Assembly: GCF_964194025.1 (NCBI RefSeq)
Contig: NC_134474.1
Span: 19,034,001 to 19,098,000, forward strand
Source of the DNA: Convolutriloba macropyga
Taxonomy: Eukaryota
DNA: 64,000 nucleotides
Direction: 5' to 3'
Position numbers and translations under genes: made by a program. A model generated the notes under the pieces. The model was not told the origin of the DNA, did no database searches, and saw nothing but the letters and a program-made list of their open reading frames with translations. Of this stretch, positions 3 to 41,600 are shown one piece after another. How positions within the stretch are numbered: position 1 is the stretch's first letter; each line of letters opens with the position of its first letter.

Positions 3-3000
3 ATTCCAAACGAAATCTTTGAAAAAGACAGTGAAGTAATATTAACATCCTCTTTAAGTTAAGTTGCTGAAAATAACATTCTCTACATCTATGTCCTGAA
101 CATTACTGACCACCCAATTACCATAAATAAAGGCGAAGAAATAGCCAAATTTTCATTCTTAACATCAGACCAAGCTGAAAAGTTGTTAGAAGTAGATCCT
201 CAATTAATTAATGTGGCAAAAATGAGCGAAAATTATTTAACAGAAATAAATCAACTAATTCAAGTTACAGACACCCCAAAAAGAAAGGCTCAATCAGCGA
301 AACCAGCACCAAAATATGAAAAACTATGGTTCCCAACGCCTGAAACGTGCCCAGATCCGACAAACTTGTCGCCCTTGCAGAGAGATATCTATGAGCAACT
401 GCTAAAACTGCAAGAAATGGAGAAATTAGATCCAAAGGGTAATAATCAGGATAAAATAACATTTTTGAGCAAGTTTCCGTGGGAAAAATCAGCCCTTAAT
501 GATGAGCAAAAAGCAGTAGTAGGTGAACTACTAGTCGAATTCAGTGATATTTTTGCGAAACACAGATTTGACGTTGGATATAACACAGATTTGAAACTAA
601 AGTTAACTCCAGAAAGAAGCATACCAATTTACGAACAAGGCCCTCCAACGCCCGACCATTTGAGAAATGATTTACAAGTAGAGCTCGCACTAATGCATTA
701 TTACGGACTGATAACAACTTTGTCTCAATCAAGATATAGTAGTCCACTTTTCGCTCAAAGAAAGAATTCAGGAAGACTCAGACTATTAATTGACTTGAGA
801 AAAGTAAACCACTTGTTGAAAAATGACTACGTGAATACCAATTTCCCGATTTCCAATATGAGTGACGCAATAAATTACTTTGCCGGGAAAAAATTGTTCA
901 CAAAACTTGACTGTTCTCAAGCATATCACTGTGTGCAAATGGCAGACGATGTATCAGTGCAACTGCTAGCATTTAACTTTGCTTCGAGAACTTATGCCTA
1001 TAAATGTCTTGCACAAGGATTGAATAAGTCAGTAACAGGATTCAGTTCCTTTATTAGACATTACTTGGACCCATGTTTAGCATCAGGAAACTGTACCCAG
1101 TTTATGGATGATATTGGAAATGCAGTAACAAATTTTGAACAATTGGTACCCTCTTTACGAGAAATTTTTACGTGTATACGTCAATCTGGATTAAAATTGT
1201 CACCCGAAAAGTGCGAAATAGCAACTGACACAATGAAATTTCTTGGAAACAACATCAGTGCAGAAGGAATTTCACCGGAAAAAACGAAAATAACTAAATT
1301 TTTAGATAAATTTAAAATGCCAAAGACAACGAAACAAGTAAAACGATTAATCGGCTTCACGCAATTCTTCCGAAATTACATACCTAACTTAGGTGAAAAA
1401 CTAATGTCATTTTACAAGCTCCTGAAGAAGGATGCAGTAATAGAAACCACAGAAGAACATGTAAAGGCATTAGAAGTAATAAAGAAAGATTTAATGGAAG
1501 CAACAAATGTAACATTGCGATTGCCAAAACCAGGCCTACAGTATGTAATTCTTTGCGATGCTAGTTACTACGGTGCAGGTTTTGTACTAATGGTGGAAGA
1601 CTACGTAAACGAAACAGGAAAGAAAGAAAAGAAAACATACGCTCCCGTATCGTTTGAATCGCATTTGTTTAATGCTACGCAATTAAAGTTCTCAATTTAT
1701 TACAAAGAGTTCCTAGCCTTGTACTATGCGCTGGACTACTTTTCACACTACATTTGGGGATCAAGTAAACAAGTAATTATACTCACTGACAACAAAAGCC
1801 TTACACAATTCTTTCAGTCAAAAGTAATACCGCCATCACTTTGGAACTGTTTAGACAGAATACTTTCCTTTAACATAGTAACTGCTCACATTCCTGAACG
1901 CGCTAATTACGCAGCCGTTTTTCTCTCGCGAATGGAGAATGACAAATCAGCAACAATGTCTTTAAAGTTAGCAGACAGAATTCCAGTTAAAGAAATAGAA
2001 ATTGACACAGAAGCACAAAACCCTGATGTAGAACTAAATGTGTTATTTGATACTGAAGGCCTCGGTGACGAAATAAACGAAGACGAAGTTAACTTTCTTA
2101 AAAAACTAGGAGTTTATGAGGATTACAAAAAGCGACAAAATAATAATCCAATTACAGAAATCCAAGGGCTATTAAAACTTAAACGAAAACACGAAATAAA
2201 TTCAATTGAGTACCCAAATCCATTAGATGAGTTCCCAGACCTTACAGACAACTTAATTAGCCTTAACTTAGCAGATGAGCAGCAAAAAGATGCAGATATT
2301 AGAATAGTAATAAGCTGGATTCAACAAAACAATCAACAACCAGACTTAAAGTATGCTACAACTAACTGAAAAAAGTATTACAAACATTTAAACAGATTAA
2401 TTCTTGAAGGGAATGTCTTATACCGGAATTTTTATGATGATACTGGAAAAGTACTTCATAAACAATTCTGTGTACCTAAGCATTTGTGGAAAGAGACTAT
2501 ATACAGACTCCATAATTCACAAACAGCAGGACATTTAGGCATTAAAGCAACAATTCAGGAATTCAGAAAGCGATTTTATTATCCAGGCTTCACTGAACAT
2601 TTCATTAGCTTCATCAAAAACTGCCTCACTTGTCTTCAATTGAACAGAGTACCGAAAAGCCACATCACACCGAAACTGCAACCAGTCAGTTCACTACAAT
2701 CATATCCAGGAGATATGCTCCAAATTGATTTAGTAGGCCCCCTAAAGTCATCGCAATATAAGTATGTTTTGAGTGCAATAGATGTTTTCACAAAGTACCT
2801 ATTCGCAGTTCCATTAACAAATGGATATGCTGACACAGTAGCCCGAGAACTAGTAAAGGTGTTCTTCCAACACAGCTACATTCCCCAAACGATGCTTAGT
2901 GACTTAGGAACCAATTTTACTTCTGAATTAATGTCAGAATTAGCAAGTTTATTAGAAGTAAAGCTAAAACATGCCTCACTAAAGCACCCTCAGACTATCG

Positions 3001-5012
3001 GAGCAGTAGAACGATCTCACGGACCACTGAAACGAATTCTGAAACTTAATACAGAAGAACAATGGAAAGACTGGCATAAATATGTTCCTCTTGCAACCTT
3101 TATCCATAATACTTCATATCATTCAGCGACAAATTGTGGTCCTTCAACTCTATTCCATGGCAGAGAACCCATAAAACCCCTTGACATACGGTTCTCCAGA
3201 AAAGTAATGGATGCAGTAGCAGTAAATTCCGATTTTGTAAATGAACTGCAAGATGCCATGATGCAAAAGTTTGGAGAAAACAAAGAAAAATTAACAACCG
3301 CATACTTGAAGTACAAAAAGTATTATGATCAAAAAGCATCAGCAAAACCGATTCTGGAGAAATCATTCTGTTTACTTTTAAACCCTAAGCTATTAGAGCA
3401 ATCAACAGTAATAGCTTCCCAAGTTCAGAAATGGCTACCGCTATATAAAGTGGAAAAAGTCCTTACTGATTCTAATTACATCATTCGAAAAGTAAATACG
3501 AATTACACCCAATGTGTTCATCGAAACAGATTGAAACCAATCCAACCAAGTGAAACTCCTGAAGACCTCGAAGTCATCAATCCTGTAAACTTTCATCCTG
3601 ATCCGTCGAGAAGACAACACATGGAACCTGACCTATTTGATAAACATATCCCAGAATTAATCAATGAGCAAGAAACAGAGATACAACAATCCAAGAAAGT
3701 GAAACAAGATCCAGTCAGAGTGACCATAAATGTTCCCCTAGGTGGACCACTAGCAGGACCAGCAGTAGCAGCACCTCCAGCAGCCCCACCGGCCCCACCA
3801 AGGGTAGTAGCACCAGCAGTTAGACCACGAACTGCCCCAGTCCACCTTCCAGTATTTGATTCCTCAAGTTCAGACGAAGCAATCCCAAATTTATTTGATG
3901 AAAATAGCAGTTCAGATGAAAATTTAGCTGACCTAAACCTGGACGCAGAACAAATTGCCCGAATACCAGTTAATCCGTTAATTGCTGACGAAATTAGACA
4001 GCAAGAACCAGAAGTTCGTGTTCCTCTTGTATCATCCTCATCAGACGATGAAATGTTTCTACCATTTCAACAGCCACAACCATCAATAGTACCATTCGAT
4101 ATTGAATCGCCTCCAGAAACGCACGAAGAACAATTTGCTTTAACTGATAGAAAAATAAGAGCCAGACCTTATAACCCAAAACGAAAACCAGAGAAAAGTT
4201 CATTCAAATCAACAGACTACCAACAGCGGAAAAATGTACGCGGATTTAAACGTGACAGAGAAATAATGTTGCATAAAGAAGATAGAACAAACCCTTACCT
4301 AACCAACCGAGTTAGAAGATCAGGCAGTCCTAGACCAAAAAATGCACGTGCCAGACTAGAACAAGAAGAAAAACGCGAAGCAATAAAAGCATCAGCACAA
4401 GCAGCACAACAGTCAACTACCCCAAGTAGAGAGACAAAATTAGATCAAGTAAGAGCTAGCATAGCAAAATATTCAGGGAAAAAGCCCAGCAGTTCAGCAA
4501 ACAAACCAGTAACCAGATCTCAAACAAAAAACTCTTCACCAGGCTCTTCAAATCAAAACTTAAATCACTTTAGTCAAGAAATAAATGCAACTTATCTAAG
4601 TTCACCAACGGATATCTTATACTCTCCACACTCTTTTGCACACTGTATATCAGCAGACCTTGCAATGGCAAAGGGATTAGCCAGACAAGTCAAAAGCTGG
4701 TACCCAGCAGCCCCAAGTGCAATTAGACTTAGATATCCACCTGCTATCGGCTCAGTTTTAATTTACTTCGACCCCATTTCTGAACGTTACATCTTCAGTT
4801 TAGTTACAAAATTCAGACACTACCACAAACCCACTTACGAATCTGTATAAGCAAGTCTTTATGAACTGAGAGAAATAGTAATAGATGCAGAAATTACACA
4901 CTTAAGTCTTCCAAAACTCGCTAGTGGCTATGATAAATTGGATTTTAATATCATTTTTGAGCTTATATGTCAAGTCTTCGACCCTCTACCTATAACCATC
5001 TATATCCATTAG
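3..5012 (+). pseudogene. pol: pol polyprotein (RT, RNase H, integrase, disordered linker, macrodomain) in one frame broken by three premature stops
   Basis: ORFs 183-2369 and 2484-4850 share a frame; in-frame stops at TAA 60-62, TGA 2367-2369 and TAA 4848-4850; natural end TAG 5010-5012. RT motifs RLLIDLRKVN, LDCSQAYH, LAQGL, FMDD (1101-1112). RNase H motifs CDAS, KEFLA, TDNKSL. Integrase H-x6-H...CLTC, IDL, SDLG-x35-E, and a GPY/F-like KWLPLYKV...VHRNRLKP. Confidence 0.95.
4590..5012 (+). other. TARG1/OARD1 (Poa1p-like) macrodomain at the pol C-terminus, split by TAA 4848-4850
   Basis: Translation FAHCISADLAMAKGLARQVK...YIFSLVTKFRHYHKPTYESV*ASL...ITHLSLPKLASGYDKLDF...ITIYIH is colinear with OARD1 motifs LAHCISED.RMG.GIA, YYLITK...HKPTY, LSMPRIGCGLDRL and ITVY. 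Confidence 0.87.
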
Positions 5013-5099
5013 CACGTACAGACCCAGTACAGTCCAGTATTACCCTCCATTAGCCCCAGAAGCCCAACAAGCCTAAGCAACTTAGCCTTAAAGCCCAAA

Positions 5100-8000
5100 A
5101 ATCGCCAAAAATTCGAAAATTTTCGACCTCAAAATCCAGTTATTTTGATATATCTCCAAAACTACTTGTCCGAACCTGGATTAACCTATTGTTCTGAAAA
5201 GCCCTCATCCAGTAGAAGCGATTCCAGCTATAATTGACCCCTCTCGACCCGTTCTAGGTACCCAAAACTTAGCCTAAAATTGACCTTTCCGAAAATCCTA
5301 GGTTCACTTCAGAAAAATAGTCATAAAATTGTGAAAAATGCCCCGATCACCCCAAACTTTTGCGCTGCAGCATTTTTCAAGCCGAGGAACCGACCTGCAA
5401 ATTTTGAATTGATTTGGAGAACTTTAAAAATTGAGTGACGCTGGAGCCCTCAATTTTTGACACTTTTCGAATCCGCTCGAATTCAATGATAACTCCCACA
5501 AAAAACCCCCAATTGACCCATCTTATAGCCCTAGATCATCCTACTGCTCACGCTTGACATCCCAGTACCCAAAAATCCTGTCAAAAATCATTAAAAGTTG
5601 AGTTATGACAAAAATACCGAAACCTATCAAAGTGCGTTAAAATTGATTAAAATGTAGTGTAAATTATATCCCAAAAACATGCCAAAAACTGTCCCAAATG
5701 CCTCCAGCAGCTACCCCCAGCTGCCACCCTCATGGTACAACCTCAAACAACCGTTAAAACCAAATATTTCCAAGTATATGTTGAAAAATGACGAAAAAAC
5801 GAAAATTGCGCTTCTGCTTCAATCCTCCGCTTCAAAAATTTTGTCATTTTATTCTCCACCTGACCCGATAAAAGCCACCTATACCCCCTACAACCCTAGT
5901 GCAACCCACTAGCTTTGTAGCACCATAAAAACCAGTCCCAGCTCATCCCAGTATCAACCATGAAGACTTAACCCAAATAACTCTCAAAACGCCACAATTT
6001 TGTCAGAAAAAATCCAGTTATTTCCCACTAGAGTCAAAAATATTAACATCTGACAAAAATTAACCATACCATCAGCACGCCCATATCTATAGCTCTCAGA
6101 ATATGCACTCCCAGCCCCCTAGTGCCAATATAAGCTGAGAAAAGACTGCCAAAGTAACGAAAGTCACAAAAAATCGAGTGAAATTTCCGAAAAAAGTGAT
6201 CAAACATGCATCTTAATACCCGAATATGGCCAATTTTATTATTAATTCAGTTAGCCCCACTCATGAGCAGTCCAACCATAGCAATATCAATCATTCTGAA
6301 CAAGTTTTTTATAGCCTCATAGCCAATAACCTATCCCCTATCTGAGCCTTTTCAAAAAACCCAGGTTCACTACAGCAAAAACGTTATAACTCGTGAAAAA
6401 ATAGTTGAAACTGCCCAAATTTTTGCGCTGCAGGGTTTTTTGAGCCGATAAAGCGGTTCACCAATTTTGAGCTCAATCGGGGCAATTTAAAAATTGAGTG
6501 ACGCTGGGCCCCTCAATTTTGGAGACTTTTTGAAAATTCACGCACATGTTCATAAAATCCAAAATATTGATTGAAAATCCAATATTATTAGCTTAAAACA
6601 TCCGAATGCTCAAGCTCTACACGCTCATTTTAAAAATATTGAAAATTTTTAAGTAAAATGTTGAAATAATAGCAAAAAACTGAAGCCTACCAAACTCTTC
6701 TCAAATTCGTCAAAACAGAGCCAAATTTAGAATATAAAAATAGTATCAAATAGCCGAATTATGAGCCCATATCCAATATTCAGTCTCCCTAGTAGTTACC
6801 CAAGCCCAATAAACCCACACAACTGCCAGAAATTCATAAATGTTGAAAAAAGTGAAAAAAATCGAAAATTGCAGATATTTTACAAAATTTTGTCCGAAAT
6901 TCTAAAGTGAAAAACTCAATATATTATTGTCAAATAATGCATTAAACTACACCAATAGCTGCCACCAACATAGTACTCACTAGTATGACCCACAATTACT
7001 GTCAAAAATCAATTATCTTCAATCTATGTCAACTTATGTACCAAACTTGACGCTTCATAAGTAAAAATTCAGTACATTTCACAGAAAAACTGGTATAAAA
7101 CCTAAGTTAATCAACTCCAAACCTACCAAATGCTACCTCTGATATTCACAGATATCAGTAACAACAGCTAGCACCTGATTTAGGCCACTAGAGAATCACC
7201 AGACCGACACATGTCTCGAAGAAGCTCAATTAGTGGAAAAATCATGCTTGAAAATTCGCATTTTGGACCCAAAAATCAACGTTATGACCCGATAAATAGC
7301 TTCAAACCCTATAATTCAGTAACATACATTAGTACCAAGCACAGAAAGTACCATTTTAACCATTCAATACCGATAATGTATGAACAGTGACGACTTATTC
7401 AGACCGAAATTTCATGATCCAAAAATAGCCAGGTTCAGATCACGAAAACAATCATAACTTTGCGAAAAATGCTTAAATTGCGCCAAATTTTTGCGCTGCA
7501 GGGTTTTTTGAGCCCCTGAAACGATCTACCAATTTTGAGCCCAATCGGAGCAATTTAAAAATTGAGTGACGCTGGAGCCCTCAATTTTTCGCATTTTTCG
7601 TTTTTTCAGACATCAGTAAAAAAGTTGACCAAAAAGTTTCCAAAAACCTGAATTTTTTGCATAGTGATTCCCCACCGATGTCTAATGAGTGGGCCAAGCC
7701 AAAAAATTTGCCCAAAGTTCAACAAAAATTGAAAAATTCACATATTTGCCACACTAGCCCTGATGCGGAAAAATGACCAAAATTACGAAAAAATTACATG
7801 TGAAAATTAGTACCAAATACTCTTCCAAACCAGTCCAAATTACACACAGGTGCTGCTAACAACCAGGACAAGTATCTAGAACCATTAAAACCAGTCTATG
7901 ATCAATAATTGACAAGTAAATTAAAGGTAATGCCCAAAAATCAAAAAAGTCGTTATGTCACCAAAATTTCACTTTCACAAATATGTCATTATAAAGTCAC

Positions 8001-8100
8001 ACACTGCAATAAAAATGTTACCACATGCTCACACACTTCACAGCTGCTAGTTCAAACAGTCTAAACCAATTAACAAAGCTACAATTGACAAATAATAAGT
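5100..8100. repeat. About three diverged ~1.06-kb tandem units, each with a conserved ~160-bp core ending in a 33-nt hairpin
   Basis: Cores GGTTCA...TTTTGCGCTGCAG...AAAAATTGAGTGACGCTGG(AG/GC)CCCTCAATTTT at about 5301-5458, 6364-6521 and 7432-7589 (hairpin offsets 1063 and 1068). Flanks of copies 1 and 2 also align at offset about 1062 (5537/6599, 5776/6838). Confidence 0.8.
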
Positions 8101-8159
8101 AAAAACTCACCTATAAATGAAACTAAACTACATGATGGATATAATTGCACCGACACTAG

Positions 8160-9644
8160 TCAATTCTCATCGGCGCTATCCTCAGCTACGGTACCACAAC
8201 CACTAGTACAATGACCGGACTGACCCCTTGTCCTAGTAGAACGAGTCACGTACCGCTCAGCATCGTCCAACCTGTTTAAATGTCAATATAATACACAAAA
8301 AGCCTCAAAATTATATGAAAAACACGATAAATCTTCACAAAAACAGTTAAATACTCACTTTGGAAAGTCTACGATTGGCTCACAATGGTACCGATACTCA
8401 TTGTCGATGAATTTCCCGATGCACTGGATCAGTACAGCAGGAGCGGTGGTTTGAGCATTGATAGAATGCCTGTAACACACCCAGCCGCCCCCCATTTCCT
8501 CAGTATACTGCCAATAAATATTGACGTTGCATCCCAGGAAAGAAGCCATGCCGACAAACTAATTAACAAAACCTCAAAGAGTACCTACCTACACATGCAC
8601 ATATCAAAATTAACAGTAATTACAATAAAACTTTACCCAGAACTCGGCCAACGACCCATTATCTTCACTCTCAGCAATCTCATACTCCGACACAAAGTAC
8701 CCTAACTGGTCCTTTACAAGCTCAGAGAATCCAGGCGAACGCATCTTGGCCACAATAGCCAAGCGTAGAGCGCGAACGTTATGCTTGGGAACCTTCTTGT
8801 CTGCAACAAACCAAACAAATGTGAATTAAAGTAATAAACTTAGTAAAAATTGCGACAAAACACAACAAATACCTGACTTCCGACCAGTTAAAGAGCAGTA
8901 GTACAGAGCACTGAGAGCACACAGACCACCAACTTCGGCCCTCACACCAGCCGCACCGAGCCATTTTGGAGTTTTGAATGACACTATGTCCACATGCTCA
9001 GCATAAATGTCATTGTAAAACTCGTACCCCAATTCGGCACACACATTTGCACGAAGATTTGTGCAGTGCACCTCTTTGCCGAACATCTTCTTCACGAAAC
9101 ATGGCACACGCTCACGATTAGATCTAAACAATAAGCATACACCACTTCACAACTAATAAAATACTACAACTACTACACAAACTAAAGAAAAACAAATAAA
9201 AATATAAATAACTATTATAAATATATGCAATTACCTTTCAACAGCGGCCTGCAATCCTCCCATTGACCGTGGAAAGAAGAACCCAGCAGCTTTCAGGCGT
9301 TCGACTTGTGACCTCACACGAGTAATGTGCTTTGCAGAAGCACTAAACCCAACATGAAGCGAAGCCAACTCCTGAGACACCATCTGCTGAGTTGGAATTT
9401 CCTTCTCCTGAACTTGCATCTCGCTGCCCACCTTCACTTCCACTTTGTACATCAACACCTCCCGATGTACAGCCAATTCTGATGTTCCCACGTTCTTTGT
9501 CCCCAGTACCATATGTTCTGCTTTGTCCCGATAAGCTCGTCGCTCCTCAGATGACCGAACAAATGATGGATACATCCATTCAGACTGAGACAACGACTTG
9601 CTTCGCAAGAAAGTCAGAAAATCCTCATACTGGGCAACATCCAT
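8160..9644 (-). CDS. Antisense 5-exon accessory gene, 378 aa, C-terminal half OTU-like cysteine protease (putative deubiquitinase); exons 9644-9235, 9123-8873, 8800-8637, 8558-8359, 8271-8160
   Basis: Four GT-AG introns (111, 72, 78, 87 nt) with T-rich acceptors and matching phases (2,1,0,2) join the exons into one stop-free 1137-nt frame. OTU-like spacing: EVGGLCALSAL...LTG (Cys 8921-8919), ALRLAIVAKM, MASFLGCNVNIY...GWVCY, YHCEP (His 8387-8385). The intron 1 acceptor could instead give an exon start at 9144 (same frame). Confidence 0.75.
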
Positions 9645-10161
9645 GATTCACAATAACTATCTGAAAGTTTCAAAATTGAGTCAAACTAGTTATTAAGCGA
9701 GCAGAAAACTAAAGTGTTAAGTCAAAAATGAACAATCACAGGAATGAAAACACACAAACAGAACAAACTACGCAATAACTGCCAAGGACATTTAAATACC
9801 ATGCTATAATGACCGCTAATAGTTAATAACACATGCCGCAAAACACACAACAACGTTTTGAAGACACAATTACACCCTTCACTAGCATTCACTTATTTAC
9901 TACGCCTCTCTAATTCTTCCTTTTGTCCCCTACTTATATCCTCAACCCCCCCCCCCCCCCACAAAACAAGTCTTGATATATTAATTACTACCATATTACT
10001 AGCACCATGTACGAAGTATATTAGTAGCACCAGTCAATTTTACATGTAAAACTACAATATTACAGTCAGTCCCAATAGTCCTTACACAGTCATATTGATA
10101 TTACTATTACACAATATTACAACTATTAAAATAGTTAAATAAAATAAAAATAAATAATAAG

Positions 10162-10566
10162 TCACACTGAATCTTCCTCGACAGCCTCCCCTGACCTCCC
10201 CACTTCCCTCCTCCTCCTCCTTCGATTTGCCCACACTCCCAACAATCCAGATACTAATGATAATAATAAAAAGAATACTAATATAATAATAATCCACCAC
10301 TCAGTCCCACCCCCACTCCCATTATCAATAACTATATCATCTACTGCTGTCATATTGCACTTTGGATGTTTCAATCTTGACCAGTGAACAGCGTTCCTTC
10401 CAACAAACCTGGTCCCATTCACACAGCACCCAATAATTATGGCAGAAACAGTGATATTAAAGCACATGGTGCAATATTGTGGGCAAAATAATCTGAAAAA
10501 CTCGAAAAAAACATGTAAAGACTGCATAATTCGACCCCCCCAACCACTACCCCCATCATCACACAC
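10162..10566 (-). CDS. Antisense ORF or terminal exon for a small single-pass membrane glycoprotein; 5' end unresolved
   Basis: Cys-rich segment with four N-X-S/T sequons (NIT, NGT, NMT, NGS), then a 24-aa hydrophobic helix WWIIIILVFFLLLSLVSGLLGVWA followed by NRRRRRR. A strong acceptor TTTTTCAG ends at 10493. Confidence 0.5.
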   Translation of the reverse strand: MCDDGGSGWGGRIMQSLHVFFEFFRLFCPQYCTMCFNITVSAIIIGCCVNGTRFVGRNAVHWSRLKHPKCNMTAVDDIVIDNGSGGGTEWWIIIILVFFLLLSLVSGLLGVWANRRRRRREVGRSGEAVEEDSV

Positions 10567-10852
10567 CCATCATTCAACCAAATAACCACACTTCAACATG
10601 TTTAAACACCATATTCAGTAGTAATATCAATAAATACACACATCAGCACACATCACCTAAAAGTAAAGTACACCTGAAATAAACAAACATCACATAAACA
10701 AGTACCATATTGAGAAAACTAGATCTAGAAGCCCGAGTAAAAGTAAATAAATGAGCAAATAAACACCGGAAGACCAAATAGAGCCAGTTGAAACACTCAG
10801 AAGAGCCACATCAGTAGAAGATTGTCCTGAAACATAGTCGATATATTGAAAT

Positions 10853-13765
10853 ATGAAAATGTTACTCACAATTGTGTTGAATCTCTTACTTTTCGGCCCC
10901 ACTTTTAAAACCCCGAATAATACAGAAGCAGCTCTGGATAAAGGCATCATCTTCCATAAAGAAGGAAAGATTCTGATTACCGAAAAGTTCATAAATGTGG
11001 AATTTTTAGTACCGTTTCCTCGCTATAATTTCACTATCAGACAACAAGTAGAGACTCTACTTAATGAACTCTCCAAAAAGTGGATCACGCAATCAGAGTT
11101 TTGCAACTTGACAGACAGCACTACATATTGGAATCAAACAGACGCCTTCAATGTTGATTGGCTTTACACAAGGATACTCAATGAAACAATAGAAGCCGAA
11201 ATTGAAGTCCTTAAATTACGCAACGAGACTGAAAAACTCCTTACCAGAGTCGAAGAAGACCCTCACAATCGACAAAAACGAGCCGCCCCGCTTGCAATCG
11301 CAGCCGCAGTCGCTGGAATTGGACTTTTTGGTCCAGGAATCGCAATGAGTAGCGGAGGATGCGGTGGAATTACAGGAATCTTCGGATCTTGTCAGCGAAC
11401 GTCCCAAAATGCTGAGAACATCGACAGATTAGCCAACAGTTTCAACAGCCTCAATGACTATGTAATGGAAATTGGCGCACAAACTGATGAGAAATTCTTC
11501 CTAGTTGCTGACGAACTTGCAAAGGTTTACAAAGTTCAAAACGAAATGCAAGAAAACCAGAACAGAAACTGGAAACTAGTAGAGGAACAATTTGCAATTG
11601 TAGACCATAATCTGAATGCACTAGCCACCTGTATGGAAATTCAATTATCACAGCAACAATTGAACTTTAACTTTGATACAGCAGCCTCATTACTTCTTAC
11701 TCTTTATGCAGATATTAAAAGTTACAGAGCAGCCTTATATTCTTTTCGAATTAATGTTATAAATGCCATTCCTACTTTGCTTGACAAACGTCTTCCAATC
11801 TCTTTAGTGCCTCGTAAATCTTTGATAAAGATCCTTGATTCAGTCCATGATAGCCAAAAGAACGCCCCAGATCGTCTAACTTTGGCAATACCCATGACTG
11901 ACATACTTTCGTACTACGATGCGAAATTAGTACAAGAGATTTCGACAGTTGAAGACGGACTTTTACTGACATTAGCCATTCCCCTAGCCTCTAGCCAGAC
12001 AGTGTTCGAAGTTTATCGTGCAATAGTAATCCCTATGCCTCAGAAGGACTCCGTAGATGCCTTACGATATGTAATAGAGGGAGAGTACTTAGCAATCTCC
12101 GAAGGACAGATGGAAACCACAGTACTGACGAAAACTCAGTATGACAACTGTCTTGGATCGCCACGATACCGAATCTGCCATGAGACAATGGAAACTAGTA
12201 GAGGAACAATTTGCAATTGTAGACCATAATCTGAATGCACTAGCCACCTGTATGGAAATTCAATTATCACAGCAACAATTGAACTTTAACTTTGATACAG
12301 CAGCCTCATTACTTCTTACTCTTTATGCAGATATTAAAAGTTACAGAGCAGCCTTATATTCTTTTCGAATTAATGTTATAAATGCCATTCCTACTTTGCT
12401 TGACAAACGTCTTCCAATCTCTTTAGTGCCTCGTAAATCTTTGATAAAGATCCTTGATTCAGTCCATGATAGCCAAAAGAACGCCCCAGATCGTCTAACT
12501 TTGGCAATACCCATGACTGACATACTTTCGTACTACGATGCGAAATTAGTACAAGAGATTTCGACAGTTGAAGACGGACTTTTACTGACATTAGCCATTC
12601 CCCTAGCCTCTAGCCAGACAGTGTTCGAAGTTTATCGTGCAATAGTAATCCCTATGCCTCAGAAGGACTCCGTAAATGCCTTACGATATGTAATAGAGGG
12701 AGAGTACTTAGCAATCTCCGAAGGACAGATGGAAACCACAGTACTGACGAAAACTCAGTATGACAACTGTCTTGGATCGCCACGATACCGAATCTGCCAT
12801 GAGACAATGGAAACCCACCTTGGATTCTCCTCGTGTCTAGCAACCTCAAGTTCCATCACACAATCTCAGCATTGAAAGTATGTGATACAGAGAAGGTTGT
12901 GTTACCCAACCCTGAACGAGCACAGAACCTTGGATACGGAATTTGGCTCCTAACATCAGCTTAAAGTGATTATACCCTTAGTGAGATTGGTACGGATGAA
13001 AATGGCCGACACATCAATGTTCCTCACAAAGGTTGTAACATCTGTTTAATCACATTAAAATGTGGACATACAATGTTCAGTGACAACATTAAGGTTCGAG
13101 CTGATTTACAAAGTTGTCAGTACCTTCCAGCAACCAGAATTAATGTTAAATTACCAGATCCACTTGCACACTTAATTGACTCAGTACCTAACATAAACGA
13201 CCTTCCAAAATATGATTCCAGTACTGAAGCAAACCTCGATTTATTGAAGAATGTTATAACTGAATTTATTTACTCGAATAGAAAGTTATCAACAGAGTCA
13301 CTAGATGCTATAGCAAAGCCAATTACCACTGAAATGAAGTTATTTAAACCAGCACTAATTGACAAACTTGAATCTTACGTTCCGATCAAACTTTCTCTCT
13401 CGTTAACAATCATTGTCTTTATCGGAAATCTAGCCCTACATATTCTCTTCATGTTCTTATACCATAAAGTAGCCTTTGTACGACGAATGGTACCGAATTT
13501 CATGAAGCTTAACGGAACCAATGTACCGCTAAACCCAGTAGTTTCCGTACCCAAACATCTGAAAGCAGATGTAGTCACAACTCTAGCCAAACAACTCAAG
13601 CAACCGCCAACAGTCATTTCCCCAGAAGAACTTGGAACCCTCAAACGACAACGACGAAATTCCATGCCTGCAACTTCTACCATATCACTCAATACCATGG
13701 ACCGATTTAACACAGACGATGAACTGGACCACCAAGCTCAGCCCCGAGATGAAAGTATTCTTTAA
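10853..13765 (+). pseudogene. env: env, class I F-type fusion glycoprotein (baculovirus-F/paramyxovirus-F-like architecture), disrupted
   Basis: Signal peptide MKMLLTIVLNLLLFG; furin site RQKR (11270-11281) followed by fusion peptide AAPLAIAAAVAGIGLFGPGIAM; heptad region; Cys-rich CLGSPRYRIC...SSCL...GCNICLITLKCG; TM LSLSLTIIVFIGNLALHILFMFLY; cytoplasmic tail. Lesions are a 619-bp duplication, a frameshift at about 12845 and TAA 12962-12964. Confidence 0.9.
11570..12814 (+). repeat. 619-bp direct tandem duplication inside env
   Basis: 11570-12188 is repeated at 12189-12807. TGGAAAC occurs at 11570, 12189 and 12808. One difference seen (G12056 vs A12675). Confidence 0.95.
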
Positions 13766-14332: not shown

Positions 14333-15197
14333 TGTCACGCCCCTATTTCGTTCCTTATAGTTTCGTGATGATATTCCTTAAATATCCATAAATAAGTGCT
14401 ATAAATTAGTTCATATTCAGTTAGTTTCAAGGCCACGTATAGCCAGTATTTCCATCTAGGCCTGTAACCCCGAATTTGTTTATGTTTATGAAAAACAACC
14501 GCAGATTGACAGGTTTTACTAGCAAACACTTCAAGTGCCTAAAAGCCTCAATATTTACTTTTTTGAGTTTCTTGATGATAAATTCACATAATCAGTAAAT
14601 AACTTCATGAGAGATTATGTACTTGGTGAAGTAATTATTCTGATAAAGTAGGTGCTAATACGGAATTGTATATGTACTGAACAAACACCAAGAGACGTAC
14701 AAAAGCCGGAAATCGCCCTACTTGAAATTCAGTAAATATTTGCGAAGGACCAATACAACTCAAGGCACAATCTTGCGGAACCCACTATCACCAGAACACC
14801 GGAGAACCAGCCTAAAAATCAGTTGCCTATCAACTCATAAAACTTGATAAAACTTGAGAAACTTCTTGTTAAAATTATTAAACAATTCTTGCTAAAATAA
14901 TTAAAGATTGAACTGGAAATTCTCTTGAAAACCGCCAAGTTTGATAAACTAAGTTACAGATGAAATATCGACTAACTTAACACTAAAATGCAAGGCAAAC
15001 TAGTGGATATATCACGCATCTGAACCGCTCAATAAAAGGCTATTATTAGCTAATTTTATTCAAAATATATCTGCTAAAAATCGCACTGTGAAACACCAAA
15101 ATAAGTCCTTGTAAAATGCCAATTATTCAAGTAAATTACTTCTAATATAAACCTCAATAGCACCACGAGGAACACTATTAAAAATCAGTGCGTAACA
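14333..15197 (+). repeat. Candidate 3' LTR (865 bp)
   Basis: Starts TGTCACGCCC and ends GTGCGTAACA (8/10 inverted match, TG...CA), with AATAAA at 15031. The 5' LTR is outside the window, so the call cannot be confirmed by pairing. Confidence 0.7.
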
Positions 15198-32627: not shown

Positions 32628-35600
32628 TTGATGCCGCACTTCAGCTGCTGTTATGTCGCGTAATCTTATCATCTATTATCCTCATTAACGCTGAGTTATA
32701 GTAGAAATTTTTTTATCATAAATGACCTAACAAGCACTTTTTAGGAAATTATTGTTAATCGCTCTCAAAAGCACTTTGTAGCAAATATATTAATCCTGTC
32801 TGTCTTTTATGCAATTTTTTGTTTGACCGATTTTTCGTCTGACCCATTTGACTTTAGTTTTCAGAAACGGAAAAAGAGGTAGCGCCCAGTGGGCATTAAG
32901 TTCTGTTAAAGCCTTTCAGTCCGCTAGTCTTCAAGTATGCGATTCACAGAAAATGTTTTGGAGACTTATACTTATGGCGTGAAGGGCGGTTCTTTGATCC
33001 CACACCCCCATCCATCGCCTTCACATCAGTCCCGCAATCCACTTTTGCACCCTCGCTTTGGTGCACCCCCACTGCACTCACCTTACGCCCCTTCAGTTAA
33101 GTTAAAGCTGGCCTCACTAAAACGTTGCTAGCTACTGACGAAGCCAACCGATTGAGAGCAATTCGCCCGACGTTAGTCGGTTATGTTTTAAGATGTTAAC
33201 TGTTTTTTTTGGGATTCTCTTTATATCAGTTCTTTGTGCTGTGACTTATTCTCATTATGGACAGGTCTAATTGTTTGTCTTGTCAGACTCTTTTTGATGA
33301 ACTTGAAGGTTTTTATTCATATCGAACTCCTTAAACAACTTTGATCCTACTCGCTTGAAAAAAGTTTTTTTTTGATCTTGCCGCTTTTTTGTCATTTTGT
33401 TTTGTTATTTAGTCTCATCAATGGTGGGTCCCACGGGGCCATTATTAGGTCTTTTTTTTAGTTAACCCTAATGCTTTCTTTTTGACACAGAAGGTTTTAA
33501 CAACTTTTATGCGACTTTTCAAAAATTGTTGGCGATTTTTTTAATTTTGCGAATTCTTTTTGGTTGCTTTTATTGTTACTTCACTTAGGATCACCAACGA
33601 GATTCTCATTGGCTCTACATCAGGTTGTATTTGAGCCCTCTGTGATGAATCTCATTTAAATCTGGTGAAATATTTCTACTTATAGCTAACATTTTCCACG
33701 ATTTTGACATGTTCTTATAGCTGCGAAGCTGTAAGCTGAGCGTAGCTATATTGCGGTGCTCTTGGTTTTTTACGACTCGAAGAGGAGTATTGGTTTTCTT
33801 GATTTTTTTTTTTAAAGGAAGCATATTTGTTCACGCGGCATTTTGACCTAAAAGCGAAACTGAGAAAAGCTGTCTCGGTGAACAGATTTTCGCTAAGCGG
33901 GAGAAGTTTTTTTGATCATGCGCTTCGTTTAGTGAATGACTTTTTGACTTTGAAAAGTAGTTTTTGACTGAATGGCACATATAGATAACCGTTTTTAGCC
34001 GGTTTTTGGACTAAATGGCCCAATTTTTTTGCTTTTAATTTGGTTTCATATAGCAATAAAGTTTATTCGATACTATATTGAAATGTCAACCTCTGAAATT
34101 GATACCACAGTGTTTTGCAGAGCCTGAGAATGCGTTTCAAATTGAAAATTGGCACATATTTCTTAATTTTATAGTTAATTCGTTAATTCTTGCCTTTTTT
34201 TCTATTAATTTCTTCGTTTTTGGATCTTTTAACCGTCTTTTTTTTTTATCAAAAATCAGTTAATATGGCAACTTCTCTTTGGTAATTCATATACTCAACG
34301 CCTCTTTCTACATCGATGTAATTTTGTTTTATAAAATTTACATATGCTAATCCGATTTTGGTAGTTTTTTCCGATTTTCGTCAGTTTTTTGTTTGTTTTT
34401 TTTTGTTGTAATTGCTAGAAATAGTCTTTTTGTGCAACATGAGGGACTTTAATTTCCTTTCAATAAAAATTCAATCATTTTTTTTGGCGTTAGGTTTTTG
34501 AAAAACATTTAAAACTTTCATAAATGCTGGCTTAAAAGTGTTTTGACCATTTTTTTGCAAAATGTTTCAATTTTTCGTATTTTTGAGTTCTTCTTTTTCC
34601 TATTTTTTGCTCTCTTCAGGAGAATAAATCTTTGTATTGGATGATTAGTTATCTTTTATGTCTTGAAAGCTGAACAATGAAATGTATTCGTTTTTCTTGA
34701 ATTTTTTATTGATTTAAAAATCTAGAATGTTTTTGTTACGGTGTTCTTCACTTTGTGCCCATATTCTTCACATTCAAGTTATTATCTTTCTAACTTTGTC
34801 ATTGCACCTACATTTATTTTCGGTATATTGATTTTTTCAGTTGTTAAAAATGTATGATTTTGGTCAGAAAATGCTTTTTAGATTTTCGTCATTTCTTTGG
34901 TTTGCATTTGATTGCATTCAACATAAGGCAGTACTGAGAGTTTGATAGCAAGCCTTTTCCGCAATTTCCACATAAGACTATTAACTGCAACTTTGTTCCG
35001 GCCTTGGTATTAAATCAAAAGATTTTTTTGCCTTTGAATATTCTTCTGCTGCTTATGTCTTTTCTATGATCAATTTAATTTTTGAATTAGAATGAAATCA
35101 TGTTGTTTAGCATTTGTACAACAAGGAACAAGTGTGTGTTGTTTTTTGTCTTAATCGCAGTGATTAGAAGTGTAATTATAGTTGTTTTCTGATTCTTAAA
35201 TTTGAGTTTTCTTTTTTGAAAAGATTTTACTTAGTTTTATTTAACTTAGATTTTTATCTGCCGTTTGCTTTCGCAATCTTTTTCAGATTAAAATCATGAA
35301 TTATTTGAGGGCAGTTGATAGCCTTGTCAGCTTTTTCAGTCTATCACTTTCTTGACCACTTTAATTATTTCGGTTTTTTAACGTTACCAAACGTTTTCAA
35401 TGATATAAAATTTTGCTGCATTTTGTTTCTCTTGGTGACAGTGGTATAAGTTTCACCAATTTTTAGAGCAGACCTGGAGAGGTAGTGAGTTAATGGTTTA
35501 ATACAAAGAGTTGTGGCTTCCGCTGCAATTACAGTTTTGTTAGTGGAATTTTGATGCTTCGAGTCGCTTCCGGAATTCTTCCGGCTATGTTTTTTGTTTC

Positions 35601-38600
35601 GTCGTCTGACGCTCTTTTTTCGTTTTACATTTGTTCACACAGCAAAGCTGAAAAAGTCAAATTTTCTGAATGACTTCTTCCTCTCACTAACGGCATTTGC
35701 GCGCGTGACGTTATTTCTCACTCGCTTTAGCGAAAGTTTTTAGGTTATTTGCGTGATTAGATTTTGATCATACGTGACTTACCACACTCACTAAAATGAT
35801 TTTAGCACTTTAAAGCTTAAGTTTAATTTGAATTTGTTTAAGGTCAAAGGAAATCATATGTGCAGTAAAGGTCCCTAATAAGAGGCTTCTGTGGGATGAA
35901 TTTTAACAGGCTTTATTAATTTATCGCTGAATGTTTTTTAGCCTAGTTTTTTGAGCGGCGTCATTTTTTTTCAATTTAGATCTGTATCTGTTTCTATCTA
36001 TTATATGGCACGCATGACTATTCTTTCGCAGCTATTTCGGCAATCTGCCGGCTAAGTTAAAACTATTGTTGATTTTTTGAGATTTTTGCCTTTTCGAATT
36101 GTTTATATTGTCGTTATGTCGCTCATTCATTTTTGAGAAGTCTCATTTGCTTTATAATTAGGAATTAATGAGTCCACTTACTGGTTTCAGATCACTGCTA
36201 ATATTGACTTTGACTTTTTCGGCATCCAAGATAGTTTCATCCCTTGTGGTCCGTTCAGACAGACGTTATCACATGCTTTTTTGCGCATGTAGCCTTAAAC
36301 TTTTGATTAAATCCAATTAGTTATTCTTTGCATGAAATTCTTTAGCCAAAAGATCAGCTACTTCCAACTTAAATTCTTTGCCAACATTTGTTTTCGAGAG
36401 TTGCTGTAATTTTAGTCGTTTTTCGAGAGTTGCTGTAATTTTAGTCGCTGCCTACATTTGTTGCTATTTTTGTTTCCCAAAGGTTTTCCTTAATTTTGTC
36501 ATATGTTTTCTATTTTTGGATAGTGCGATAGATGTCCGAGAGTTCAAGTTTTAGTTGCTTCTTTCAACGACTTTGATGCCACTTGTTTTCACAGACTTCT
36601 TAAAAACTCACAAATATTTGTTGTTGTCCTTTTATGTCTCTCAGTGGTTTCCTACAAAGTTGGCATTTGCCGCTTTAACTCCCATTGTGCAATAACCTTT
36701 CGAATTTGTTGTTGTTGGACATGAAAACTTCCATAACACTTCCATAAGAACTCCCACAAAAATGTTTTTGCTTTTAATTTCCTGTCCTTGTTCTGTTTCT
36801 TTCGTGGGCTTCTTTGTATAAGATTTGAACCGTCTTGGAACGGTTCTTTAAAGGAGTGTGATTGTATTGTCTTCATTTTGTACATTCCTTTGAATTGTGA
36901 TTCATGTTTTTTATTCTTCGTCTTCGTTGTTTCGTTTCGAAAAAGTCTAAAAAATTTTGAATTACTTCATCTCACGGCGCGTGCGCACGTGACATCGTTT
37001 CTCATTCTCTCTAGAGAAAAATTTAGGTCACTTGTGTGAAATAATTTAAGGTCAAAGGAACTCATATATGTAATAAAGGTACTCTTTAAAAAGGCTTCTG
37101 CGGAGTGAATTTTATCAAGCGTTATTCATTTATCGCTGAATGTTTTTCACATAGCTCTTTGAGCGGCGTCGATAAATTTGGTAGCTATTCCGGCAATCTG
37201 ACGGCTATGTTAGTAAATGATCTCACGAGGTGGAATCATTAGCATTCCAAAACTTTCCGATGAACCAAGTGGTCGAAAAATCTTAAAATCCTTTCTGTTT
37301 CTGAAAGCAAAATCCCACTTGTTACAAGATGCTGGCGAGATTTTGAATCTGCTGATACATATGAAATTACATGTTGAGAACCTTTGTTTTTATCGCCGTA
37401 GTAATTATTGGTCCAACTTGTTTGTGAATGTTTTATCCGTAAAACAGCTTCCCAGTAAACTTGTCTTACTGGTCTTGTTAGCTCAAATTGAAGTTCTTTA
37501 TCGAACTAAAAAGCGGCGAGCAGATGTTGAAATTGAATATAGTATTACAGAATTAATGGTTTATATTGTTGTTATGTCGCTCATTCATTTTTGAGAAGTC
37601 TCATTTGCTTTCTAATTAGGAATTAATGAGTCCACTTACTGGTTTCAGATCACTGCTAATATTGACTTTGACTTTTTCGGCATCCAAGATGGTTTCATCC
37701 CTTGTGGTCCGTTCAGACAGACGTTATCACATGCTTTTTTGCGCTTGTAGCCTTAAACTTTTGAGTAAATCCAATTAGTTATTCTTTGCATGAAATTTTT
37801 TTAGCCAAAAGATCAGCTACTTCCAACTTAAATTCTTTGCCAAAATTTGTTTTCGAGAGTTGCTGTAGTTTTTGTCGCTGCCTACATTTGTTGCTATTTT
37901 TGTTTCCCAAATGTTTTCCTTAATTTTGTCATATGTTATCTATTTTTGGATAGTGCGATAGATGTCCGAGAGTTTTAGCCGTTTTTTGGACTAAATGGCC
38001 CAATTTTTTTGCTTTTAATTTGGTTTCATATAGAAATAAAGTTTATTCGATACTATATTGAAATGTCAACCTCTGAAATTGATACCACAGTGTTTTGCAG
38101 AGCCTGAGAATGCGTTTCAAATTTAAAATTGGCACATATTTCTTGATTTTATAGTTGATTAGTTAATTCTTGGCTTTTTTTCTATTAATTTCTTCGTTTT
38201 TGGATCTTTTAACCGTCTTTTTTTATCAAAAATCAGTTAATATGGCAACTTCTCTTTGATAATTCATATACTCATCGCCTCTTTCTACCTCGATGTAATT
38301 TTGTTTTATAAAATTTACATATGCTAATCCGATTTTGGTAGTTTTTTCCGATTTTCGTCAGTTTTTTGTTTGTTTTTTTTTTGGTTGTAATTGCTAGAAA
38401 TAGTCTTTTTGTGCAACATGAGGGACTTTAATTTCCTTTCAATAAAAATTCAATCATTTTTTTTGGCGTTAGGTTTTTGAAAAACATTTAAAACTTTCAT
38501 AAATGCTGGCTTAAAAGTGTTTTGACCATTTTTTTTGCAAAATGTTTCAATTTTTCGTATTTTTGAGTTCTTCTTTTTCCTATTTTTTGTTCTCTTCAGG

Positions 38601-41600
38601 AGAATAAATCTTTGTATTGGATTATTAGTTATCTTTTATATGTCTTGAAAGCTGAACAATGAAATGTATTCGTTTTTCTTGAATTTTTTATTGGTTTAAA
38701 AATCTAGAATGTGTTTTTGTTACGGTGTTCTTTACATTGTGCCCATATTCTTCACATTCAAGTTATTATCTTTCTAACTTTGTCATGGCACCTACATTTA
38801 TTTTCGGTATATTGATTTTTTCAGTTGTTAAAAATGTATGATTTTGGTCAGAAAATGCTTTTTAGATTTTCGTCATTTCTTTGGTTTGCATTTGATTGCA
38901 TTCAACATAAGGCAGTACTGAGAGTTTGATAGCAAGCCTTTTCCGCAATTTCCACATAAGACTATTTACTGCAACTTTGTTCCGGCCTTGGTATTAAATC
39001 AAAAGATTTTTTTGCCTTTGAATATTCTTCTGCTGCTTATGTCTTTTCTATGATCAATTTAATTTTTGAATTAGAATGAAATCATGTTGTTTAGCATTTG
39101 TACAACAAGGAACAAGTGTGTGTTGTTTTTTGTCTTAATCGCAGTGATTAGAAGTGTAATTATAGTTGTTTTCTGATTCTTAAATTTGAGCTTTCTTTTT
39201 TGAAAAGATTTTACTTTTCTGCCGTTTGCTTTCGCGATCTTTTTCAGATTAAAATCATGAATTATTTGAGGGCAGTTGATAGCCTTGTCAGCTTTTTCAG
39301 TCTATCACTTTCTTGACCACTTTAATTATTTCGGTTTTTTAACGTTACCAAACGTTTTCAATGATATAAAATTTTGCTGCATTTTGTTTCTCTTGGTGAC
39401 AGTGGTATAAGTTTCACCAATTTTTAGAGCAGACCTGGAGAGGTAGTGAGTTAATGGTTTAATACAAAGAGTTGTGGCTTCCGCTGCAATTACAGTTTTG
39501 TTAGTGGAATTTTGATGCTTCGAGTCGCTTCCGGAATTCTTCCGGCTATGTTTTTTGTTTCGTCGTCTGACGCTCTTTTTTCGTTTTACATTTGTTCACA
39601 CAGCAAAGCTGAAAAAGTCAAATTTTCTGAATGACTTCTTCCTCTCACTAACGGCATTTGCGCGCGTGACGTTATTTCTCACTCGCATTTGTTGCTATTT
39701 TTGTTTCCCAAAGGTTTTCCTTAATTTTGTCATATGTTTTCTATTTTTGGATAGTGCGATAGATGTCCGAGAGTTCAAGTTTTAGTTGCTTCTTTCAACG
39801 ACTTTGATGCCACTTGTTTTCACAGACTTCTTAAAAACTCACAAATATTTGTTGTTGTCCTTTTATGTCTCTCAGTGGTTTCCTACAAAGTTGGCATTTG
39901 CCGCTTTAACTCCCATTGTGCAATAACCTTTCGAATTTGTTGTTGTTGGACATGAAAACTTCCATAACACTTCCATAAGAACTCCCACAAAAATGTTTTT
40001 GCTTTTAATTTCCTGTCCTTGTTCTGTTTCTTTCGTGGGCTTCTTTGTATAAGATTTGAACCGTCTTGGAACGGTTCTTTAAAGGAGTGTGATTGTATTG
40101 TCTTCATTTTGTACATTCCTTTGAATTGTGATTCATGTTTTTTATTCTTCGTCTTCGTTGTTTCGTTTCGAAAAAGTCTAAAAAATTTTGAATTACTTCA
40201 TCTCACGGCGCGTGCGCACGTGACATCGTTTCTCATTCTCTCTAGAGAAAAATTTAGGTCACTTGTGTGAAATAATTTAAGGTCAAAGGAACTCATATAT
40301 GTAATAAAGGTACTCTTTAAAAAGGCTTCTGCGGAGTGAATTTTATCAAGCGTTATTCATTTATCGCTGAATGTTTTTCACATAGCTCTTTGAGCGGCGT
40401 CGATAAATTTGGTAGCTATTCCGGCAATCTGACGGCTATGTTAGTAAATGATCTCACGAGGTGGAATCATTAGCATTCCAAAACTTTCCGATGAACCAAG
40501 TGGTCGAAAAATCTTAAAATCCTTTCTGTTTCTGAAAGCAAAATCCCACTTGTTACAAGATGCTGGCGAGATTTTGAATCTGCTGATACATATGAAATTA
40601 CATGTTGAGAACCTTTGTTTTTATCGCCGTAGTAATTATTGGTCCAACTTGTTTGTGAATGTTTTATCCGTAAAACAGCTTCCCAGTAAACTTGTCTTAC
40701 TGGTCTTGTTAGCTCAAATTGAAGTTCTTTATCGAACTAAAAAGCGGCGAGCAGATGTTCAAATTGAATATAGTATTACAGAATTAATGGTTTATATTGT
40801 TGTTATGTCGCTCATTCATTTTTGAGAAGTCTCATTTGCTTTCTAATTAGGAATTAATGAGTCCACTTACTGGTTTCAGATCACGGCTAATATTGACTTT
40901 GACTTTTTCGGCATCCAAGATGGTTTCATCCCTTGTGGTCCGTTCAGACAGACGTTATCACATGCTTTTTTGCGCTTGTAGCCTTAAACTTTTGAGTAAA
41001 TCCAATTAGTTATTCTTTGCATGAAATTTTTTTAGCCAAAAGATCAGCTACTTCCAACTTAAATTCTTTGCCAAAATTTGTTTTCGAGAGTTGCTGTAGT
41101 TTTTGTCGCTGCCTACATTTGTTGCTATTTTTGTTTCCCAAATGTTTTCCTTAATTTTGTCATATGTTATCTATTTTTGGATAGTGCGATAGATGTCCGA
41201 GAGTTTTAGCCGTTTTTTGGACTAAATGGCCCAATTTTTTTGCTTTTAATTTGGTTTCATATAGAAATAAAGTTTATTCGATACTATATTGAAATGTCAA
41301 CCTCTGAAATTGATACCACAGTGTTTTGCAGAGCCTGAGAATGCGTTTCAAATTTAAAATTGGCACATATTTCTTGATTTTATAGTTGATTAGTTAATTC
41401 TTGGCTTTTTTTCTATTAATTTCTTCGTTTTTGGATCTTTTAACCGTCTTTTTTTATCAAAAATCAGTTAATATGGCAACTTCTCTTTGATAATTCATAT
41501 ACTCATCGCCTCTTTCTACCTCGATGTAATTTTGTTTTATAAAATTTACATATGCTAATCCGATTTTGGTAGTTTTTTCCGATTTTCGTCAGTTTTTTGT

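Follow-up and report, generated by a model that had tools for sequence, protein, structure and literature searches.

A predicted five-exon antisense gene for an OTU-like protease between pol and env of a Ty3/gypsy element of Convolutriloba macropyga

The Retroelement and Its Genes

The window, a stretch of 64,000 nucleotides of the C. macropyga genome, holds most of a Ty3/gypsy element of about 19.3 kb with an antisense gene situated between its pol and env. Reverse transcriptase (RT), RNase H, and integrase follow in this order between two LTRs, as expected of the Ty3/gypsy type, and an exact 5-bp target duplication is present in five of the seven copies examined. The genome contains Wnt genes, as expected of an animal host. 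The sense-strand features are as follows:

63..5012, plus strand: pol, with RT, RNase H, and integrase (Pfam), then a TARG1-like macrodomain; begins upstream of the window
10853..13765, plus strand: env, F-type-like, broken in the window copy
14333..15197, plus strand: 3′ LTR, TG..CA, after the polypurine tract

The 5′ LTR lies about 4.1 kb upstream of the window and is 99.5% identical to the 3′ LTR, and the insertion has a 5-bp target duplication. In the window copy pol is interrupted by in-frame stops at 2367-2369 and 4848-4850, the latter within the TARG1/OARD1-like macrodomain with which pol ends (4560-5012, plus strand; E 4e-15 against the human protein). The env matches the Pfam family Baculo_F with an E of 0.0014, which is below the cut-off; the env ORFs of related elements are 774-800 aa long. 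The window copy of env carries a tandem duplication (11564-12195 and 12183-12814) absent from the six other copies compared.

This duplication, 632 bp within 11564-12814, is one of several near-perfect ones in the window, the others being a 3.2-kb/1.4-kb array (33993-46180) and a 6.27-kb tandem pair of 99.9% identity (50813-63358). Such duplications, frequent in the fetched loci too, may be real or products of assembly. Tandem arrays whose units comprise a decayed env and the antisense cassette were seen at G000:C1:38.54-38.59 Mb and G000:C11:44.71-44.73 Mb. The spacer between pol and env also contains three dispersed copies of a non-coding 170-190 bp repeat (5284-5471, 6347-6534, and 7418-7600), 74-81% alike and present in other copies of the element; an Rfam search of 4800-10900 gave no matches.

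Structure of the Antisense Gene

The coding frame of the antisense gene runs from the ATG at 9644 to the TGA at 8162-8160 of the minus strand. The preliminary description had placed four GT-AG introns exclusively on the strand opposite to pol and env; they are indeed found there, reading CT..AC on the pol/env strand, and their removal joins five exons (9644-8160) into one stop-free frame of 378 codons:

9235..9644, minus strand: coding exon 1, with the two conserved His of a His-His-CxxC pattern
9124..9234, minus strand: intron 1, phase 2, 111 nt; same position and phase in 8/9 distant loci
8873..9123, minus strand: coding exon 2, with the CxxC and then the start of the OTU-like domain; candidate catalytic Cys codon at 8921-8919
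8801..8872, minus strand: intron 2, phase 1, 72 nt; at most two codons off, in the same phase, in 7/9 distant loci
8637..8800, minus strand: coding exon 3, helical part of the OTU-like domain
8559..8636, minus strand: intron 3, phase 0, 78 nt; same position and phase in 8/9 distant loci
8359..8558, minus strand: coding exon 4, strands of the OTU-like domain; candidate catalytic His codon at 8387-8385; pN/pS 0.14
8272..8358, minus strand: intron 4, phase 2, 87 nt
8160..8271, minus strand: coding exon 5, a short tail under weak constraint; pN/pS 0.77, interval 0.31-2.61

The GC content of the introns is 22-28%, versus 47-53% in the exons. Under a single set of rules, the longest spliced frame amounts to 342 codons on the minus strand versus 106 on the plus strand, and the maximum reached in 200 dinucleotide shuffles is 229 codons; the figure of 342 falls short of 378 because the search rules rejected the acceptor of intron 4. 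In 28 of the 29 other close copies, exon 2 is 9 nt longer than in the window copy.

The intron map is shared by distant relatives. A spliced aligner that was not supplied with intron positions placed introns at codon 137 in phase 2 (8/9 loci), at about codon 224 in phase 1 (7/9), and at codon 278 in phase 0 (8/9); the nine loci represent six families with 24-34% protein identity, one further locus, H, having been left out for its internal duplication. At the place of intron 4, T-rich stretches were noticed in the distant families by eye only. The last exon of these families, following the probable fourth intron, encodes short basic tails such as KRLR (also by eye), which could be nuclear localisation signals.

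The additional minus-strand splice signals listed in the preliminary description, i.e., TTTCAG ending at 9661, AG/GTGAGT at 8110, and TTTCAG ending at 10493, are all present. The word GT[AG]AG is equally minus-skewed in pol, env, and the spacer (10 versus 0-1 in each), and since this skew runs along the whole element, minus-strand donor-like words are no evidence by themselves and count only where they are conserved. The sequence comparisons indicate that the antisense gene is real, conserved, and probably spliced. In four runs with contig sets of genome size, none of the five joints within 8050-9950 coincided with an intron, a result that does not bear on expression.

Intron Retention and Selection among Copies

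Copies of the gene are numerous, the counts being lower bounds: at least 42 matches in a DNA search and at least 149 in a search with exon 1. That the introns survive retrotransposition, as had been proposed, is borne out by 30 close copies, which have lost none of their 120 introns and keep 236 of 240 splice dinucleotides; the length of 27 of the 120 introns is not divisible by three. No intronless copy was found: among the at least 149 exon-1 matches, none has an open frame above 218 aa. The check on young copies gave the same answer: homologous introns are present in copies of other families whose LTRs are 99-100% identical. Introns are retained in new insertions, then, and the step by which they are retained would be an RNA one.

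The spliced frame is open in 22 of the 30 close copies. Its pN/pS is 0.27 (0.20-0.39), and the values for the shifted frames are 1.20 and 1.43 and for the introns 1.11; the plus-strand frame that mirrors the ratio of the antisense gene contains 14 stops. When variants are divided by class, pN/pS is 0.22 for the shared and 0.58 for the single-copy ones, a difference that would fit selection during replication of the element, relaxed after insertion. Comparison of seven moderately diverged copies gives an identity of 80-90% for the intact exons 2-4 and of mostly 59-76% for the introns.

The Product as a Probable OTU-like Protease

The product is likely a cysteine protease of the OTU family that would strip ubiquitin from proteins, as judged from sequence profiles and modelled folds. 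OTU-like motifs can be recognised in it by eye. A profile of the antisense proteins that includes the distant families was compared with one built from six OTU domains found by Pfam in the same genome; the match extends over 160 columns, i.e., the whole domain, with a probability of 96.9%, an E of 1.8e-10, and a score of 69 versus at most 18 in 40 shuffles. The close copies alone score 17.8, which is not significant, with shuffles reaching 19.7. Pfam OTU (PF02338) gave no match on intron-containing or single-exon input, and searches of PDB sequences returned nothing relevant to the product.

The candidate catalytic residues are in register with those of OTU domains, a Glu or Asn standing two residues after the His. 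Among the close copies the Cys is kept in 30/30 and the His in 29/30; across families they are found in 9/10 and 10/11 alignment rows, respectively. OTU enzymes usually carry an Asp three residues before the catalytic Cys, and this residue is not kept in the antisense product. The structure models are weak (pLDDT 46 and 57, with two introns read in), and the first fold gave nothing significant. With the model of pLDDT 57, all 37 of the 37 rows listed by Foldseek are deubiquitinases, 36 of them named as OTU-family (best E 0.013), and the top seven rows from VIA are OTU proteins with a Z of 4.1-5.2, the best of which, 5.2, is rated common by the tool itself. The fold scores are weak alone; it is the agreement of profile and fold that would carry the OTU reading.

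An unlikely alternative is that the OTU fold has been kept by a protein that is no deubiquitinase, e.g., an inactive ubiquitin binder or a protease acting on a protein of the element. The great divergence of the product from known OTUs, its lack of a Pfam match, and the missing Asp speak for it, but across the families, whose identity is 24-34%, few residues are as well kept as the Cys and His. A deubiquitinating protease is the reading retained below.

Linkage to the Element and the Question of Origin

Homologues of the gene adjoin pol and/or env, antisense to them, in 40 of the 41 other loci fetched for it (6/6, 10/10, 4/5, 10/10, and 10/10 in five sets). The exception, C13:14.12 Mb, comprises decayed pieces of the cassette with neither pol nor env in the 10 kb fetched. 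A cassette with inverted repeats of its own, living outside the LTR element, was the alternative envisaged at the outset; no terminal inverted repeats flank the cassette, the longest inverted match in the spacer being 18 bp and away from the cassette ends, and among the fetched loci only the decayed pieces lie apart from pol and env. In being antisense, downstream of pol, conserved, and present in most copies, the gene agrees with an antisense additional ORF (aORF-3R).

A divergent database fragment, P0029, led to further families in the same genome, in which the in-frame parts of pol are 41-67% identical. In a set of ten of these loci every one has paired LTRs, with 99-100% identity in five of the ten, and some of the elements have uninterrupted gag, pol, and env frames. 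The RT and antisense-protein distances are correlated (Mantel rho 0.61, 0/2000 permutations, 17 loci, one of the 18 having been dropped for short coverage), which fits inheritance of the gene with the element; as kin share history, the correlation is not a proof of co-evolution. Outside the genome, exon 1 has no homologues at an E of 0.01, other searches gave 29 and 39 matches, all of them short pieces of 44-177 aa resembling single exons, and an Atlas search produced no usable match.

That the cassette is a mere passenger, of no use to the element, is highly improbable. Many env-bearing elements do without it, as such a reading would have it, but it is kept across families as divergent in pol as those above, and the purifying selection, stronger on shared variants, largely refutes it.

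The gene could, on the other hand, be the remnant of an intron-bearing DNA transposon of the Ginger1 type, inserted backwards and deprived of its DDE core, an origin that is possible though doubtful and that is compatible with the gene being an accessory antisense OTU gene. By the published account, Ginger1 transposases combine a YPYY motif and an H2C2 finger with an OTU or Ulp1 domain at the C-terminus, and their genes contain 0-4 introns (PMC2836005); in the present product a His-His-CxxC pattern precedes the OTU-like domain. By eye this exon-1 pattern recalls the zinc finger of integrases, but the profile scores of the N-terminal part against integrase zinc fingers are within the shuffle range. 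Also against this origin, the exons give no rve match, so that a DDE core is missing, as are the GPY/F motif and terminal inverted repeats, and the OTU references tested came solely from long, Helitron-like frames of the same genome. A Helitron, which would be recognised by a Rep-helicase gene or Helitron termini and by copies outside the LTR element, is not indicated, 40/41 loci being beside pol and/or env. OTU domains were also seen inside open frames of about 2500 aa at L076, L077, and L078 (G000 C4, C2, and C10), which by inference are probably Helitrons.

Antisense Expression and Upstream Signals

Several features around the protease gene bear on its expression:

8105..8110, minus strand: donor-like GTGAGT, 49 nt after the stop; in 29/30 close copies and in 5/11 diverged copies covering the site
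9661..9892, minus strand: probable 5′ leader intron, donor 9892 and acceptor 9661, enclosing TATTTAAA at 9798-9791
10162..10467, minus strand: small membrane gene of 101 aa; hydrophobic segment, basic tail; pN/pS 0.47
10820..10838, minus strand: acceptor-like TGTTTCAG near the env start; in 25/30 close and 7/8 diverged copies

The acceptor at 9661 lies 16 nt before the ATG and is present in 30/30 close copies, while the GT of the donor at 9892 is found in 28/30 close and 7/8 diverged copies; a second donor near 9937 occurs in 7/8 diverged copies. A TATA candidate at 9938 was rejected, as a donor-like GT stands there in 7/8 diverged copies. The acceptor at 10493 is situated 25 nt before the ATG of the small membrane gene, similar versions of which are present in six of the seven families inspected. 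Two distant families that were viewed lack this gene. Diversity among the close copies is 0.16 in the membrane gene, 0.14 at the env start, and 0.02-0.04 in the protease exons.

The arrangement recurs among families: 6/7 have an acceptor 5-23 nt ahead of the ATG of the protease gene and 6/6 have one before the small membrane gene, and several show a short exon with one or two donors and, near the env start, an acceptor. The start of the antisense RNA is therefore probably in env or the 3′ LTR. The TGTTTCAG site likewise suggests a start further upstream, although it may instead serve the plus strand. Downstream of the gene, the GTGAGT at 8110 is a probable donor of an intron in the 3′ UTR; no acceptor matching it was found.

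The preliminary description had taken TATTTAAA at 9798-9791 for a candidate TATA box, and the gene to have a promoter belonging to itself. The word is present, but a promoter at this place is not borne out, the word falling inside the probable leader intron 9892-9661. That the same gene is driven by a separate promoter immediately before it, at 9798 or close by, is accordingly quite unlikely. The word is kept in 28/30 close and 4/8 diverged copies, within a fairly conserved block, and gene23 of the maize element Grande is reported to have an antisense promoter of its own (PMC7264820). However, TATTTAAA is enclosed by a conserved donor and acceptor, of which the latter needs a donor upstream. 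Counting both strands, the window contains the word 12 times. Moreover, the placing of an acceptor shortly before the start codon in six of seven families argues against such a promoter, and two distant families have no TATA-like word at all and only 136-151 nt from the upstream gene to the start codon.

A further explanation, less probable still, is an operon-like antisense RNA from which spliced-leader trans-splicing, acting at the TTTCAG acceptors, would release the single messages. Acceptors do stand just before both start codons, with intergenic gaps of 136-212 nt in three families, a layout that recalls the operons of nematodes and tunicates, but several families have strong cis donors some 50 nt upstream of the acceptor of the membrane gene. 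Conventional cis-splicing of a longer antisense transcript is the reading followed here.

As regards the packaged strand, strong donor words in nine elements number 26 on the plus strand versus 55 expected from base composition and 66 versus 88 on the minus strand, which hints, if modestly, that splice sites are avoided on the packaged strand. A poly(A) conflict as the cause of the antisense orientation found no support in hexamer counts, AATAAA being common on the plus strand (9-34 per element).

A Proposed Exchangeable Slot between pol and env

The place between pol and env was surveyed in 20 loci picked by their env, none of them previously found through the protease gene. Exons of the protease gene were found in 0/20. 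In nine of the 20 elements pol abuts env, so that not all env-bearing elements need the cassette, and in four a similar small membrane gene is followed by a JmjC-like gene; the remaining loci comprise one with JmjC-like motifs (by eye), four with other antisense frames, and two that are unclear. The JmjC-like genes are located as follows:

L171:7342-8269, minus strand: JmjC-like gene, antisense in the element, behind the membrane gene
L175:1231-2605, plus strand: JmjC-like gene, antisense in the element, behind the membrane gene
L176:1241-2637, plus strand: JmjC-like gene, antisense in the element, behind the membrane gene
L178:1270-2547, plus strand: JmjC-like gene, antisense in the element, behind the membrane gene

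In three of the four, taking out a single GT-AG intron turns a frame of 76-86 codons into one of 263-279; the remaining gene is broken. The HxD...H motif, which in the cupin domain of JmjC dioxygenases supplies the iron ligands, is visible in the product, which matches KDM7 with an E of 1.8e-4 and the Pfam JmjC domain with an E of 0.002-0.006, below the cut-off. Long pol-env spacers with antisense frames were also seen at L177:6668-7324 (minus strand), L166:2398-4376 (plus strand), and L167:1754-2851 (plus strand); among these frames one is JmjC-like by motif, and a frame of 252-256 aa and a basic one of 104 aa have no Pfam match.

In a midpoint-rooted integrase tree of 28 elements (two of the 30 were dropped for short coverage), the JmjC carriers are placed among the OTU carriers in a clade with 99% support, which suggests that the cargo may have been replaced in place. 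The antisense orientation may have been selected as a means of keeping introns, or it may only have permitted the survival of an intron-bearing gene that had come in as DNA; that one slot has accepted two different intron-bearing cargoes favours the idea that it tolerates such genes as a rule. It can be speculated further that the pol-env spacer is an exchangeable antisense slot whose OTU or JmjC enzymes, together with the macrodomain of pol, erase marks of silencing or destruction, a proposal that should be held only tentatively. If true, a fixed leader and membrane gene precede intron-bearing enzymes taken from DNA, and the host marks erased are ubiquitin, methyl, and ADP-ribose.

Proposed Mechanism

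Taken as a whole, a predicted five-exon antisense gene for an accessory OTU protease in an env-bearing Ty3/gypsy lineage is a reasonably probable explanation of the locus. By established logic, splicing of the packaged RNA passes over introns that lie antisense in it; the spliceosome would leave them, and reverse transcription would copy them into new insertions. The protease gene would be read only from the integrated DNA, within a longer antisense transcript, which, to judge from the conserved acceptors and donors, would start in env or the 3′ LTR and be spliced to either the small membrane gene or the protease gene. The slot behind the membrane gene would be exchangeable, with some sister elements holding the one-intron JmjC-like gene instead. 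The most probable job of the product would be counter-defence, i.e., removal of host marks from the proteins or chromatin of the element, which is the weakest step of the proposal.

Such an arrangement would offer RNA-replicating elements a route to keep unprocessed, intron-bearing genes, and spliced antisense genes of this kind are missed by ORF annotation of the sense strand.

Comparison with Known Systems

HBZ of HTLV-1 is a spliced antisense product; unlike the present gene, it overlaps other viral genes and is no enzyme. An antisense promoter is known in HTLV-1 (PMC7264820). Antisense RNAs from the 3′ LTR of Arabidopsis copia elements are, by the published account, multi-exon and made from integrated DNA, as proposed here, but they are non-coding (10.1101/2024.04.02.587720).

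The closest parallels in position are the aORF-3R genes that plant Ty3/gypsy elements carry between pol and the 3′ LTR, e.g., Grande gene23, RIRE2, Retand, and PvRetro13 (PMC7264820). According to that review, they are likewise antisense, downstream of pol, and kept in most copies, and they are expressed from DNA; they are without known function, and the review's account of them describes no introns, while calling for a search for spliced antisense transcripts (PMC7264820). The present gene differs in having an animal host, an env in its element, four predicted introns, and a probable enzyme fold. In fungi, brtn is an additional antisense gene after pol in the Boty-like gypsy elements of Botrytis and Sclerotinia (PMC7264820, PMC8365987), conserved, like the present gene, in related elements; as described there, these elements have no env and brtn has no known function.

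The metazoan errantiviruses resemble the window element in their gag-pol-env order, LTRs, and many young copies, and probably in an F-type-like env, and neither 'antisense' nor 'OTU' occurs in the main text describing them (PMC13524379). OTU domains encoded by transposons, as is likely here, have been reported in Ginger1, the genes of which have introns (PMC2836005), and in Helitrons (PMC6431247); both are DNA elements in which the OTU domain forms part of a transposase or Rep-helicase protein, whereas here it would be a separate gene of an RNA-replicating element. A captured enzyme as an accessory gene is exemplified by the m6A demethylase ORF of orchid Ty3/gypsy elements (PMC9289625), and accessory cargo differing among families, as in the present slot, by the ORF3 of bdelloid elements (PMC5408684), neither cargo being described as antisense or intron-bearing in these accounts.

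A search of titles and abstract openings, mostly exclusive of subscription papers and Repbase reports, found no intron-bearing antisense coding gene between pol and env of an animal element, and a literature search for an LTR retrotransposon with an OTU domain and deubiquitinase gave no match. Antisense extra genes after pol were thus already known from plant and fungal elements, mostly without known function; what is likely new here is the likely enzyme identity of such a gene and the exchangeable slot that it occupies. The probable enzyme fold, together with an intron map that is old and stable and with a second cargo in the same slot, makes the function of the antisense extra gene testable.
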